A stretch of DNA of 30,914 nucleotides from a virus (taxonomy: Duplodnaviria > Heunggongvirae > Uroviricota > Caudoviricetes), in the IMG/VR virus record IMGVR_UViG_2537562231_000009, positions 1 through 30,914 of that record. One strand, 5' to 3'. Numbering within the stretch: position 1 is the first letter of the stretch; every line of letters begins with the position of its first letter. Positions 13,065 to 16,564 of this stretch are shown here, piece after piece. Below the pieces are notes generated by a model that searched no databases, was not told where the DNA came from, and saw only the letters and a program-made list of their open reading frames with translations. The position numbers and the translations under genes are program-made.

Positions 13065-15410
13065 GTGTGCGAGTGCTCAAAAAACGTTGATTTTCATAAA
13101 AGGATGATTTTATGCTGCCAGACCAGCGACCAGCGACCAGCGACCAGCGACCAGCGACCAGCGACCAGCGACCAGCGACCAGCGACCAGCGACCAGCGAC
13201 CAGCGACCAGCGACCAGCGACCAGCGACCAGCGACCAGCGACCAGCGACCAGCGACCAGCGACCAGCGACCAGCGACCAGCGACCAGCGACCAGCGACCA
13301 GCGACCAGCGACCAGCGACCAGCGACCAGCGACCAGCGACCAGCGACCAGCGACCAGCAGTAAATCAAGAAAGTCTGTAAAATCTGTTGAGCCGGAAATT
13401 ACCGAACTGGCGAACTCATGGCTTAAATCTTACAGGCTTGATTACAAGTTGCAGAATGCATCACTTAACGGAGAGATCGATAACGCACTGGACGCTTATT
13501 TTTCGAAAAATGGCGGCGCAGGCGGTAATCGTCCCGACGTAAAACTCCTTGTTAAGGACAAATACGGCAAGCAGTATCCCGTTCTCATCGAGTATAAAGG
13601 CTACAAGGACAGGCTTATCAGACTTGGCAGCAACGGTATTATTGAGAACAAAGATGCCAGAAAAGAATGGAATTTTAAAAATATTAATGGATACGCGGTG
13701 AATGGCGCAGTCCATTATGCCAACGCACTTCTTCAGTTCACCAATTACCCTGATATTATTGCTATTGGTATGACCGGCTGGCGCGATGATGGTACAGGCG
13801 AACTGCATCATGAAATCGGCGTGTGGTACGTATCAAAGAATAATTTAGGAGCCGGACAGAAGGTTGGTGAATTCACCGACTTATCGTTCCTTGCTGATAA
13901 AAATGTTGATGGATTTCTCAACAAGATAAAGCTGCTTAATCTTCCTCCCGAAGAACTGGAAAAAATCAAGGCCAGCAAAGAGGAAGAGATAGACACGCGA
14001 CTTTCCCGTCTGAATAACGATATTTACCAGAATGAAAAGGGGCTTGGTGAAAGTGATCGTGTTTACCTTGTTGTGGCTACCGTTATTGCAACGTTGGGGA
14101 TTCCGGGAAAGTTAGCACCGCTGGATAAAAAAGAACTGACCTCTTCAACGGAGGAGGACTTGCGTGATGGTGATATTATTTTCAGGAAAATAAGGAATTT
14201 TTTAAGGCTGAAAGCTGTTCCTGAAACAAAAAGAGAAATGATTTTGCGCTCGTTGCAAAATACGCTGTGGACTGAAAACATTAACAAACCAGTCAACGGT
14301 GAAAGCCAGTTAAAGCGCGTGTTTGTTAAAGTTGTTGATGATCTTGGGGAGTATTACAAAATTGGACTGACCACCGATTTTACGGGCAAACTGTTTAATG
14401 AGATGTATCGCTGGCTTGGATTTACGCAGGACAAGCTCAATGACGTCGTTCTGACACCACCTTATGTTGCCACATTGCTGGCACGACTCGCCAGAGTAAA
14501 CAAAGATTCCTATGTGTGGGATTTTGCTACAGGTTCTGCGGGATTGCTTGTGGCTGCAATGAATGAAATGCTCATTGACGCCAGAGAAAATATTCACTCA
14601 CCGAACGAACTACAACTTAAGGAAGCGCAAATCAAGGCTGAACAGCTTCTTGGCCTTGAGGTGTTATCCAGTATTTATATGCTGGCCATCCTGAATATGA
14701 TTTTGATGGGGGATGGTAGCTCGAATATCCTCAATAAAGACTCGCTGGCCGATTTTGACGGCAAGTATGGATTTGGGAAAACAGGAGAAAAATTCCCTGC
14801 GGACGCATTTATTCTCAATCCTCCGTATTCAGCTAAAGGTAACGGCATGATTTTCGTGCAGAAGGCGCTGTCGATGATGGATAAAGGCTATGCTGCAGTG
14901 ATTATCCAGAGTTCAGCTGGCACAGGAAAGGCTACGGAGTACAACAAAAAAATACTCAAGGAAAATACCTTGCTGGCAAGCATCAAAATGCCTGCGGATC
15001 TGTTTATTGGTAAATCAAGCGTTCAGACGTACATTTACGTTTTTCAGGTAAAAATTCCGCATAACGCGAAACAGGCTGTTAAGTTTATCGACTTTTCCAA
15101 TGACGGCTACGCTCGCTCTAATCGCAAAAAGGCAAGAAACAATCTTGTTGATGCCGATCGTGCAAAAGAGCGTTATCAGGAGGTTGTGGATCTGGTTCAC
15201 TTCGGGAAAGGTTGCCTTAATATCTTTACGGAGGATGAATATTTTGAGGGAACAATCGATCCTGATAGTGGTGAGGACTGGAATCAGACCAGGCCAGTAG
15301 ATGCTAGGCCAACGCTGGAGGATTTCAAAAAGACGGTAGGTGATTACCTTGCATGGGAGGTCTCGCAATTACTGAAAAAACAAGGTGAAAACAATTTTGC
15401 GGGAAAGTAA
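13065..15410 (+). CDS. Restriction-modification enzyme: candidate N-terminal PD-(D/E)xK nuclease domain fused to a gamma-class N6-adenine methyltransferase (Type IIB/IIG-like); start codon ambiguous (GTG 13065, ATG 13104, ATG 13112)
   Basis: Methyltransferase motif I DFATGSAGLL and motif IV NPPY; upstream RPDVKLLVKDKYGKQYPVLIEYK fits a PD...ExK nuclease motif; heptamer repeat near the 5' end; low-GC gene. Confidence 0.7.
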   Translation: MCECSKNVDFHKRMILCCQTSDQRPATSDQRPATSDQRPATSDQRPATSDQRPATSDQRPATSDQRPATSDQRPATSDQRPATSDQRPATSDQRPATSSKSRKSVKSVEPEITELANSWLKSYRLDYKLQNASLNGEIDNALDAYFSKNGGAGGNRPDVKLLVKDKYGKQYPVLIEYKGYKDRLIRLGSNGIIENKDARKEWNFKNINGYAVNGAVHYANALLQFTNYPDIIAIGMTGWRDDGTGELHHEIGVWYVSKNNLGAGQKVGEFTDLSFLADKNVDGFLNKIKLLNLPPEELEKIKASKEEEIDTRLSRLNNDIYQNEKGLGESDRVYLVVATVIATLGIPGKLAPLDKKELTSSTEEDLRDGDIIFRKIRNFLRLKAVPETKREMILRSLQNTLWTENINKPVNGESQLKRVFVKVVDDLGEYYKIGLTTDFTGKLFNEMYRWLGFTQDKLNDVVLTPPYVATLLARLARVNKDSYVWDFATGSAGLLVAAMNEMLIDARENIHSPNELQLKEAQIKAEQLLGLEVLSSIYMLAILNMILMGDGSSNILNKDSLADFDGKYGFGKTGEKFPADAFILNPPYSAKGNGMIFVQKALSMMDKGYAAVIIQSSAGTGKATEYNKKILKENTLLASIKMPADLFIGKSSVQTYIYVFQVKIPHNAKQAVKFIDFSNDGYARSNRKKARNNLVDADRAKERYQEVVDLVHFGKGCLNIFTEDEYFEGTIDPDSGEDWNQTRPVDARPTLEDFKKTVGDYLAWEVSQLLKKQGENNFAGK
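13121..13358 (+). repeat. Simple sequence repeat: 34 perfect tandem copies of GACCAGC
   Basis: Read directly from the sequence; lies inside the 5' end of ORF 13065..15410, where it encodes (TSDQRPA)n. Confidence 0.9.
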
Positions 15411-15469
15411 ATTCCCCGCTCAGCGATAAATTAAGAAGCGTTGAGTGGGGAGAGTTCAGGATTGGCGAT

Positions 15470-16564
15470 TTGTTCTATGTGAGCACAGGCTCGCTTATCT
15501 CCTCAGGAAGATTAAAACCAGGCAAAATCAAACGTGTTTCAGCAAAGAGCGATCAAAACGGTATCATCGGAGAGTTTGATACCGAGTTTATGGATGATGC
15601 AAGGCATTATGAAAATTTTATAAGCGTTAATTTTTTTGGAGATGCTTTTTATCATCCTTATTGTGCCAGCGTAGAAATGAAGGTGCATGTTCTTACATTA
15701 AAATCAAGTAAGTCCGACTTTAATGCAAAGCGCGGACTGTATGTTGCCAGTATGATTAATAAAGCTTTAAAGGGGCGTTTTAATTATGGTCAACAGTTAT
15801 CGAGTTCCAAACTCAGAGATGGAGAATATTTCATCTCATTACCAGTGAAAAATAATGAAATTGACTGGTTTTTTATGGATAATTATATAGAAGAGCTGGA
15901 AGCGGCCCATATAGAAGAGCTGGAAGCATACCTGATAGCTGCTGGGCTGAGTGATTACCAACTAACGGAAAAAGATTATCTTATCCTGGAGCATTTTAAA
16001 AATATTGAATTTTCAGGCTTTCCTGTTACTGAGTTATTCTCAGTGTGCAATACAGGAAACATATTGTCTAGAGACATCATAGAAAATAGTGGGGATGTTC
16101 CTTATCTTTGTGCTAGCCGTGATAATAACTCTGTTAGTTCTTATATCGCCTATGATGACTCACTCTTGGAAAAAGGGAACTGTATTTTTATTGGTGGTAA
16201 GACATTCGTTGTAACTTATCAGGAGCGAGACTTTTTTTCAAACGACAGTCATAATTTGCGACTCTATGTTAACAATGAGGATGGAAGGACAAAGTTTGCT
16301 TATTTGGGCATTATTTCATGTATTTATAGGTCTATTTCACATAAATATTCATGGGGGGATAGTGTTAGTAATAGAAAAATTAAGAACGATGTTATTTGGT
16401 TGCCAGTGAAAAATAAGTCACCTGACTTTTGTTATATAAATGACCTTATTTCAGTTGTTCATAAGCTTGTCATTAAAGATGTTGTCCAGTACGCAGAACG
16501 CAAAATGAACGCATACAGGCAAGCTATAACAAGTCGCGGTTATGATGATTCTGGTGTCAGTTAA
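15470..16564 (+). CDS. HsdS-like specificity subunit with two short target-recognition domains and a central repeat region
   Basis: Two variable domains separated by IEELEAAHIEELEAYL; HsdS-like motifs (ISLPVKNNEIDW..., IWLPVKNKSPDF...); first canonical start is TTG; visibly AT-rich. Confidence 0.65.
   Translation: MFYVSTGSLISSGRLKPGKIKRVSAKSDQNGIIGEFDTEFMDDARHYENFISVNFFGDAFYHPYCASVEMKVHVLTLKSSKSDFNAKRGLYVASMINKALKGRFNYGQQLSSSKLRDGEYFISLPVKNNEIDWFFMDNYIEELEAAHIEELEAYLIAAGLSDYQLTEKDYLILEHFKNIEFSGFPVTELFSVCNTGNILSRDIIENSGDVPYLCASRDNNSVSSYIAYDDSLLEKGNCIFIGGKTFVVTYQERDFFSNDSHNLRLYVNNEDGRTKFAYLGIISCIYRSISHKYSWGDSVSNRKIKNDVIWLPVKNKSPDFCYINDLISVVHKLVIKDVVQYAERKMNAYRQAITSRGYDDSGVS

Follow-up and report, generated by a model that had tools for sequence, protein, structure and literature searches.

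Introduction

Among described restriction–modification systems, those closest to the locus examined here are the BcgI and BsaXI systems, in which a restriction–modification polypeptide (RM) and a separate specificity subunit (S) assemble as (RM)2S (PMC9159934, PMC11997821). In Type I systems, the number of repeats in the central region of the S subunit alters the length of the target spacer (PMC6789123), and an engineered M–S fusion of EcoKI is active and needs extra free M (PMC3510504). Here we analyse a 30,914-nt stretch of phage DNA (IMG/VR record IMGVR_UViG_2537562231_000009; the whole stretch is called the window), in which two open reading frames (ORFs) on the + strand, 13065–15410 (781 aa) and 15470–16564 (364 aa), form an RM/S cassette. 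The enzyme family is known, and the interest lies in two apparent control devices that the literature searched does not report: a junction that points to programmed −1 frameshifting from RM into S, and a 7-bp repeat tract that appears to switch RM on and off. An earlier reading of the sequence alone (the original prediction) recognized the pair but missed the hypervariable repeat, the absence of an S start codon and the frameshift signal.

Results

A candidate frameshift signal at the RM/S junction

The elements at the junction of the two genes in the window are as follows.

15382–15388, + strand: Shine–Dalgarno (SD)-like AAGGTGA, located within the RM coding sequence 12 nt before the heptamer, a candidate upstream frameshift stimulator.
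15401–15410, + strand: slippery heptamer G_GGA_AAG (15401–15407), then the RM stop codon TAA (15408–15410).
15413–15451, + strand: hairpin of 13 bp with a 13-nt loop (arms 15413–15425 and 15439–15451), beginning 5 nt after the heptamer.
15401–16564, + strand: S coding frame, −1 relative to RM, with the linker GKVNSPLSDKL, the N-terminus RSVEWGEFRIGDLF and two target-recognition domains (TRDs) alternating with two conserved regions (CRs) in the order TRD1-CR1-TRD2-CR2.

RM ends with ...GCG GGA AAG TAA, which places the heptamer in frame and in the X_XXY_YYZ pattern, and a −1 slip would read GGG AAA GTA AAT..., that is, GKVNSPLSDKLRSVEW.... The S frame is open from 15401, its first canonical start codon is TTG 15470, and the conserved S N-terminus (SVEWGEFRIGDLF) is encoded upstream of that codon; in the alignment, RSVEWGEFRIGDLF of the window stands against LNSVEWGNFKLGDLF in Providencia and MLESVEWDNFTLSQIF in Neisseria. 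RefSeq annotates S from GTG 15479, and a newer annotation calls the 5′ half of S a pseudogene. The minimum free energy (MFE) of the hairpin in the window is −23.3 kcal/mol (z = −5.2), and the junction element matched no Rfam model at gathering or permissive thresholds.

The signal was followed through the family in a genome scan with one genome per species, which yielded 80 loci at ~70% identity from Proteobacteria, Bacteroidota, Bacillota, Campylobacterota, candidate phyla and others; the heptamer statistics refer to the 66 loci in which RM ends with Gly-Lys-stop. The Gly codon was GGA in 66/66 loci, whereas at 29 other invariant Gly columns the top codon reached only 33–62%. The codon before this Gly ended in G in 66/66 loci, across seven amino acids, and the other columns with 100% third-base G encoded Met or Trp only. 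Synonymous sites are otherwise saturated, because pairwise third-base identity at invariant four-fold sites was 0.32. The Lys codon of the heptamer was AAA in 35 loci and AAG in 31, and the stop codon directly after the heptamer was TAG in 46, TAA in 17 and TGA in three. The −1 frame was open into S in 72/82 loci, with a conserved linker (GK[IVM][DN]x[PS]LNxKL) and S N-terminus in which the middle codon position of the −1 frame varied least, and no ATG, GTG or TTG preceded the VxW motif of S in 36/65 loci.

Both flanks of the heptamer carried conserved elements. An SD-like motif (GGAGG or AAGGA) was enriched 9–13 nt upstream, and duplexes with the anti-SD of −6 kcal or below were found in 58% of the sequence windows at −20..−4, versus 5% of gene-body windows (66 loci; Mann–Whitney p = 5e-22). 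Downstream, RNAalifold on 63 distinct sequences gave a hairpin that begins 5–6 nt after the heptamer; its 7-bp core was paired in 98% of alignment cells, versus 32–58% with the partner slid, and the MFE z-scores of the family hairpins averaged −5.4. Two synonymous sites inside the hairpin were invariant, whereas synonymous sites outside it were free (entropy 0.8–1.8 bits), and two-sided changes occurred at pairs 20:42 (UA 24, UG 22, CG 13, GC 2) and 12:50. Diverged E. coli/Salmonella alleles and a relative at 46% identity (L110) kept this layout, although both the heptamer (A_AAA_AAG or A_AAA_AAA) and the stem sequence differed. In addition, natural in-frame RM–S fusions of 872–1078 aa exist at the same linker in the same ~70%-identity clade (L092, L090, L072 and L102), the junction of L092 reading ...NERLKKDALLNEKLKNVKWGKY.... 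The site combines a heptamer conserved beyond what the protein needs, an open and conserved −1 frame, and an SD-like motif with a structure spaced at 5–9 nt, as looked for in frameshift sites. Judged from these comparisons, the junction points to a dnaX-like programmed −1 frameshift that would produce an RM–S fusion.

The main rival explanation is that S is not frameshifted but has a start of its own (TTG 15470 or GTG 15479), or is translated by re-initiation at the overlapping GTA, ATA or ATG, the heptamer, SD-like motif and hairpin serving coupling or mRNA stability. EcoKI offers a precedent: its hsdM and hsdS genes overlap by 1 nt, and this overlap couples their translation (PMC3510504). 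Stop and start truly overlapped as ATGA in 3/66 loci, an ATG or TTG lay 9–10 codons into the linker in 30/66, and the RefSeq start at GTG 15479 fits the same explanation. However, tandem tRNA slippage needs both a fixed G and GGA, and re-initiation does not account for the two together, leaving unexplained why G precedes GGA in all 66 loci across seven amino acids and why the Gly codon is always GGA. The SD-like motif is also 15–17 nt from the overlapping codon, too far for initiation, and ATA and GTA are very poor start codons. Moreover, an own start would leave the conserved S N-terminus untranslated in the 36/65 loci mentioned above, and the natural fusions at the same junction argue against a separate S. 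We consider this explanation unlikely. Transcriptional slippage at the junction is likewise unlikely for GGGAAAG, which has only three A, and may apply to the runs of seven to eight A in lineage-2 alleles.

Several observations weigh against programmed frameshifting. A relative at 44% identity (L111) is without the slippery heptamer, and in another at 31% (L112) S, in frame with RM, has an ATG of its own and there is no slippery site, indicating that the frameshift signal is clade-specific and not universal in the wider family. A possible internal S start (ATG or TTG about 9–10 codons in) exists in 30/66 loci, and therefore free S may also be made. Finally, the linker between the RM stop codon and VxW is under constraint from protein and RNA alike; conserved amino acids could thus account for some of the conservation seen in the hairpin, and two-sided change was confined to pairs 20:42 and 12:50.

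A 7-bp repeat tract between two start codons and the RM body

At the other end of the RM gene, the following features were found.

13100–13114, + strand: dual start region, with the SD AAGGA at 13100–13104, a first ATG (ATG1) at 13104–13106 and a second (ATG2) at 13112–13114.
13121–13358, + strand: perfect (GACCAGC)×34 tract (Tandem Repeats Finder: period 7, 34.0 copies, 100% matches), codons 20–98 of the 781-aa ORF.
13359–15410, + strand: RM body of 683 aa, consisting of a nuclease domain, a helical connector and a gamma-class N6-adenine methyltransferase.

The tract is open in all three frames, each of which reads (DQRPATS)n. ATG1 (13104, MILCCQ...) is in the frame of the 781-aa ORF and has no spacing to the SD; ATG2 (13112, MLPDQ...) is in a different frame and lies 7 nt after AAGGA; the third frame is without a start upstream of the tract. 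Database proteins begin at either ATG (P0006, P0010), and both ATGs and the tract are kept in 85%-identical alleles. GTG 13065 was rejected as a start, having no SD and ATG 13104 downstream in the same frame. The plain 781-aa product of the original prediction is accordingly not upheld, since codons 20–98 of that ORF are the repeat and its GTG is without an SD. Homologues at 72% identity (Neisseria, Providencia and others) start with M...SIEPNIADLANGWLKSY, equivalent to 13380–13430, immediately downstream of the tract. Between the tract and TTG 13449 there is no in-frame ATG, GTG or TTG, indicating that the body must be translated through the tract. As 7 is not a multiple of 3, the tract length decides which ATG, if any, is in frame with the body.

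A competing reading takes the tract as an untranslated leader, with translation starting at 13449, in which case its length would have no effect on the frame and would at most tune transcription or mRNA structure. RefSeq annotates a 653-aa RM protein from 13449 in every genome, together with a minus-strand protein across the repeat, and a tail of 70–230 residues on an enzyme would be unusual. However, a start at 13449 would cut off ~30 residues that every homologue conserves, among them the near-invariant E11 of the body and the first nuclease helix, and the PADLOC alignment described below starts at ORF residue 108, upstream of 13449. Two conserved ATGs in two frames just before a tract that is stop-free in every frame also speak for translation, and we regard an untranslated leader as quite improbable.

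Tract length was surveyed in 24 near-identical prophage loci, namely the window, 22 other complete E. coli chromosomes and the phage genome PhiR12_3 (ECOR13), and ranged from 23 to 99 units (161–693 bp). A strain otherwise 100% identical to the window had 89 units versus 34, and the Symbioflor isolates G1/2, G6/7 and G8 had 91, 83 and 99 units, respectively. The 683-aa body was identical in 17 of the 18 window-lineage copies and differed by one residue in the other. The body was in frame with ATG 13112 in four of the 24 copies and with ATG 13104 in nine, among them the window; in the remaining 11 no start was in frame. The tract has the marks of a contingency locus: a unit between start and body whose length is no multiple of three, a tract length that differs among close strains, and both ON and OFF frames in the sample. 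It appears to be a slipped-strand ON/OFF switch with up to three expression states, which would be expected to change state within a culture.

Three points count against such a switch. The frame counts (4/9/11) are not different from chance and therefore show no selection for ON. The lengths compare assembled genomes of separate strains and do not describe a single culture, and assembly errors of one unit are possible in long repeats. In addition, the window allele (n = 34) may in practice be OFF, because ATG 13104 has no usable SD spacing.

Other observations were made on the same tract. On the minus strand, an ORF at 13012–13368 reads (WSLVAGR)n; RefSeq calls it a 'YXWGXW repeat-containing protein' or hypothetical, with a length that differs per genome, and it looks like an annotation artefact of the repeat. 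The minus strand of 13121–13358 also reads in units of GCTGGTCG, repeated 34–99 times, a 7/8 match to the Chi octamer GCTGGTGG; judging from this resemblance, the tract might have a role in recombination via the near-Chi GCTGGTCG. A Salmonella contig begins inside the same 7-bp tract. A literature search with the double (GACCAGC) unit found no paper, the single unit being too short to be informative.

The RM polypeptide

The RM body comprises the following elements.

13359–13928, + strand: predicted PD-(D/E)xK nuclease domain.
13536–13538, 13590–13592 and 13596–13598: predicted catalytic residues D60, E78 and K80 of the body (D158, E176 and K178 of the 781-aa ORF).
14520–14828, + strand: methyltransferase core, with DFATGSAGLL (motif I) at 14520–14549, then NPPY (motif IV) at 14817–14828.

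Motif I before motif IV is the gamma-class order, in agreement with the gamma-class motifs reported in the original prediction, and Pfam gave N6_Mtase at 7.6e-21. The first ORF also contains the nuclease motif RPDVKLLVKDKYGKQYPVLIEYK (RPD...EYK), exactly over which lies a sub-threshold VRR_NUC match (1e-3). The PADLOC model REase_MTase_IIG, which represents nuclease–methyltransferase fusions, matched ORF residues 108–773 at 4.9e-232 over nearly its entire length, and a second PADLOC model (637 positions) matched RM at 2e-44. The homologous family is large, with 1791 representatives at E ≤ 1e-3 in a representative library. D60, E78 and K80 were invariant and E11 nearly invariant in an alignment of 21 members at 31–73% identity, and E11 was invariant in a 19-sequence N-terminal alignment. 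Homologues of 686 aa at 72% identity begin at the equivalent of 13359–13390. A further homologue search, run with a diverse profile, led back to the same Neisseria clade without adding diversity; family diversity was taken from the representative library and the genome scan.

The AlphaFold model of RM had a predicted local distance difference test (pLDDT) score of 84.5 overall and 95.4 in the N-terminal domain, in which the first nuclease helix starts at body residue 11. In Foldseek, the whole model aligned over 671–674 columns with the BsaXI RM subunit (Type IIB) and over 708–761 columns with the Type IIG enzymes BpuSI and DrdV, whereas HsdM chains aligned only to the C-terminal 485–560 columns. 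By profile, the methyltransferase core was nearest to Type I HsdM (2okc, 5e-21; RM.BsaXI, 8e-7). A single-sequence search of the PDB with the RM body found nothing, and a profile of the N-terminal domain gave only a chance match in the PDB; the nuclease is accordingly assigned by its fold and its motif and not by sequence. The original prediction had offered the PD...ExK motif as a candidate, and both lines of evidence favour it: the three residues are invariant down to 31% identity, and the predicted structure gives the N-terminal domain a nuclease fold, the absence of which would have refuted the prediction.

It could also be argued that the pair is a methyltransferase only, an M + S remnant of a Type I system without HsdR, whose N-terminal domain is a non-catalytic relic. 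RefSeq names the product an HsdM family methyltransferase, Type I HsdM is the nearest sequence relative of its methyltransferase part, and an intact gonococcal BcgI-like system gave no detectable methylation or activity (PMC6789123). This reading is hard to reconcile with nuclease residues D, E and K that are invariant across the family, with the nuclease fold of the N-terminal domain, or with a best profile match to nuclease–methyltransferase fusions, and we judge it highly improbable.

No helicase or translocase ORF (HsdR/Res) was found in the window, where the other large ORFs encode phage O, an esterase, terminase, capsid and portal proteins, and the arrangement of an HsdR helicase–nuclease with HsdM and HsdS that defines Type I is thus absent. 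Nuclease and methyltransferase in one chain, an S with two TRDs and two conserved regions, and no translocase are architectural features of Type IIB, and one phage record already annotates the enzyme as BcgI alpha chain-like. The BcgI-type layout of the original prediction (a fusion plus a separate S, with no HsdR) was borne out by PADLOC, by the end-to-end alignment with BsaXI and by the lack of a helicase in the window. The sequence comparisons and the structural model support a two-gene BcgI/BsaXI-like RM system (Type IIB-like, also classed IIG) with predicted enzymatic activity; if the analogy with BcgI and BsaXI holds, it would act as (RM)2S. Type IIB enzymes are defined by cleavage of both strands on either side of a bipartite site, which releases a short fragment, and the pair may cut in this way.

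The S protein

The next gene had been described as HsdS-like with two TRDs, and the profile searches agree: Methylase_S matched S in two stretches (1.3e-19), and the PADLOC model Specificity_II (341 positions) matched it at 9e-21. The lengths of 637 and 341 positions of the two PADLOC models are presumably those of BcgI A and B. With its two TRDs, S probably supplies bipartite DNA specificity. Its central conserved region contains a short repeat.

15887–15938, + strand: 24-bp repeat (8 aa, IEELEAAH) ×2.2 in the central conserved region of S.

Two copies of IEELEAAH are present in the window, and three in JNEC-KY173 (L015) and in some Neisseria and Providencia homologues. In a sister E. coli prophage allele, the central part of the S gene contains a further simple-sequence repeat, (GCGGACTC)n (L025 3162–4377, L026 4845–4899, L027 4028–4162). 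With 6.9 units S is intact (L026), and it is split into two half-genes in L027 (16.9 units) and in L025; a specificity switch is possible in this allele. The (GCGGACTC)n tract is absent from S of the window. In E. coli E110019 (L008), the open frame of S has 335 codons versus 387 and a different C-terminus, and S is probably disrupted there.

Such lesions raise the question of whether the cassette is a decaying remnant, a dead gene pair inactivated by the repeat expansion and by the lack of an S start. In 11/24 copies no start is in frame, the newer RefSeq annotation marks the 5′ half of S as a pseudogene, E110019 has a truncated S, and some lineage-2 alleles have a split one. However, the 683-aa body is intact in 18/18 window-lineage copies (17 identical and one with one residue changed), and S is full length in 17/18 of them. 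The missing S start is the norm in 66 loci of many phyla, where it accompanies a conserved signal, and a perfect repeat points to ongoing slippage. Decay is, in our estimation, very improbable.

Position in the prophage and base composition

The features that flank the cassette are the following.

12579–12606, + strand: PR′-like sigma-70 promoter, TTGAAA-16-TAGAAT, 10/12 consensus matches (consensus scan), overlapping the Q stop codon.
12613–12937, + strand: hok/sok type I toxin–antitoxin locus (Rfam sok 12613–12787; hok coding sequence 12782–12937).
16630–16649, + strand: predicted terminator-like hairpin and T-run 3′ of the S stop (consensus scan).
16827–16979, + strand: methyltransferase remnant (site-specific DNA methylase, C-terminal part), a RefSeq pseudogene without N-terminus.
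17020–17269, + strand: three tRNAs, downstream of the cassette.
17367–17870: TerB-family gene, in the slot that holds stx in related phages.
18039–18240, + strand: small RNA (sRNA) STnc100.
18241–18302, − strand: anti-GcvB sRNA AgvB.

Q, upstream of the cassette, was identified by Pfam as Phage_antitermQ (8.8e-48). The original prediction placed the pair in the late operon directly after Q: it does lie between the PR′-like site and the tRNAs, but hok/sok intervenes, so that it is not directly after Q. Late transcripts that enter the cassette presumably start at the promoter-like site at 12579–12606, given its position after Q. The Rfam sok (CssrC) match begins at 12613, the expected start of a transcript from this promoter, and the RNA modelled by Rfam as sok (CssrC) may be the PR′ leader transcript. 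The low GC content that had been noticed is real but modest: 0.41 in the cassette (RM body 0.43, S 0.37) versus 0.50 in the rest of the window.

The methylase remnant, at about 16865–16978, suggests that the cassette displaced most of an ancestral phage methylase gene that is usual between Q and the tRNAs in Stx-type phages; the 50-aa ORF of the remnant (16827–16979) had no Pfam match. ARAGORN reads the first tRNA (17020–17095, + strand) as Met with anticodon CAT, and RefSeq annotates tRNA-Ile on an identical gene; it would be an ileZ-type tRNA whose CAT anticodon is lysidine-modified. Downstream of the tRNAs are the TerB-family gene and an SASA esterase gene. The stx slot (17367–18302) holds the TerB-family gene and a DUF3927 gene, followed by the sRNAs.

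Taken as a whole, the cassette is probably cargo that a lambdoid prophage carries in its late region, where Q is followed by hok/sok, RM, S, the tRNAs, the slot that stx occupies in Stx phages, and the lysis genes. At least 80% of the cassette is present in ~22 of 5426 complete E. coli genomes, and ~30 have most of it. In E. coli 2013C-3033 stx1c lies downstream of the cassette, and in OkiPb01714 stx2 lies downstream of the tRNAs. The Q dependence of stx expression is established, and with stx downstream of the cassette in these strains, PR′ transcripts that reach stx must cross it; from its position, transcription of the cassette would itself be Q dependent. In a Providencia alcalifaciens prophage (L021/L022, 4894–9182), a homologous RM/S pair lies directly after another antiterminator type (Pfam Antiterm) and precedes holin and endolysin genes, the same cargo slot in an unrelated prophage, without the 7-bp tract. 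Neisseria chromosomes carry the homologous pair on its own, flanked by rluD-like and hisS genes and without a neighbouring helicase.

Discussion

We propose the following mechanism. Slipped-strand mispairing would lengthen or shorten the (GACCAGC)n tract between the starts and the body. If n = 0 mod 3, the well-placed ATG 13112 would be in frame with the body; if n = 1 mod 3, the state of the window (n = 34), only the poorly placed ATG 13104 would be; and if n = 2 mod 3, no start would be in frame and the gene would be OFF. When made, the enzyme would carry an N-terminal (DQRPATS)n tail. At the end of RM, the ribosome would meet the SD-like motif, the slippery G_GGA_AAG, the stop codon and, 5 nt downstream, the hairpin; part of the ribosomes would terminate and release free RM, and part, at whatever rate the signal sets, would slip by −1 and continue into S, giving an RM–S fusion. 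One RM and one RM–S would be the equivalent of (RM)2S.

The direct evidence for this account covers the anatomy of the cassette, the fold of RM, the repeat polymorphism, and the nucleotide conservation and covariation of the frameshift signal. On the comparative sequence data, the repeat switch and the frameshift signal are both strongly supported as candidate control devices, and a BcgI/BsaXI-like cassette with a repeat switch and a frameshift fusion is probably the best explanation of the locus as a whole. With more reserve, we lean towards the wider view that a widespread BcgI-like clade uses a dnaX-like −1 frameshift (SD-like motif, G_GGA_AAR, stop and hairpin) to make RM and RM–S, setting (RM)2S, and that E. 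coli/Salmonella prophages have added the 7-bp switch.

Should the frameshift prove real, it would, within the limits of our search, be the first programmed frameshift described in an RM system; the literature searched, a partial collection and thus not proof of novelty, contained nothing that links ribosomal frameshifting to RM and S genes. It would offer a simple explanation of the 2:1 subunit ratio in a two-gene Type IIB system, would link two-subunit (BcgI type) to single-chain (AloI/CjeI type) enzymes, and would correct many RefSeq annotations, including the truncated RM, the spurious opposite-strand 'YXWGXW repeat' protein and the S pseudogene. If the switch is real, a restriction and methylation system that switches at random would be present in E. 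coli/Salmonella prophages, Stx1c and Stx2 phages among them, which would bear on phage host range, gene flow among pathogenic E. coli and possibly epigenetic heterogeneity. To our knowledge, switching of this kind driven by simple-sequence repeats is rare in E. coli. The locus is systematically under-seen, because the tract breaks short-read assemblies. If both devices are real, a restriction enzyme between Q and the stx slot would be under two recoding/hypermutation devices.

Compared with known systems, the cassette most resembles BcgI and BsaXI (BsaXI structure 8W0P/8W2P): the RM chain consists of an N-terminal PD-(D/E)xK nuclease and a gamma-class N6A methyltransferase, S is separate with the order TRD1-CR1-TRD2-CR2, and there is no translocase. 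It differs from BsaXI in that the sequence relation is weak (8e-7, methyltransferase part only) and that RM of the window has 683 aa versus 911 aa, with no evident counterpart of the C-terminal 'paddle' of BsaXI. Neither a repeat switch nor a frameshift signal is reported for BcgI/BsaXI in PMC9159934 and PMC11997821. With Type I HsdM/HsdS (EcoKI, StySJI) the cassette shares a homologous methyltransferase core and S architecture (2okc, 5e-21; Methylase_S) and a central S repeat of the kind that sets the target spacer, but it is without HsdR and has its nuclease on the M chain. Unlike the engineered M–S fusion of EcoKI, the fusion in the window would arise naturally by ribosome slippage.

The repeat tract recalls the phasevarions (Type III mod and Type I hsdM/hsdS genes of Haemophilus, Neisseria and others), in which a non-triplet repeat in the 5′ coding region likewise sets the frame and differs in length between close strains (PMC7383803). 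The main text of this survey of Type I phasevarions mentions neither Escherichia nor a GACCAGC unit. Unlike phasevarions, the system of the window resides in an E. coli/Salmonella prophage and has a 7-bp unit with tracts of 161–693 bp, its two ATGs would give three states, and its nuclease lies in the same gene, so that restriction and modification would switch together.

As for the junction, the SD-like element ~10–13 nt upstream and the hairpin 5–6 nt downstream of an X_XXY_YYZ heptamer are as in dnaX, G_GGA_AAG is the heptamer of lambda G/GT and A_AAA_AAG is that of dnaX. In both dnaX and lambda G/GT, as proposed here, two products are made in a set ratio. The cassette would differ from both in that the zero-frame stop directly follows the heptamer, so that ribosomes that stay in frame would make a complete RM, and those that shift would append an entire second protein.

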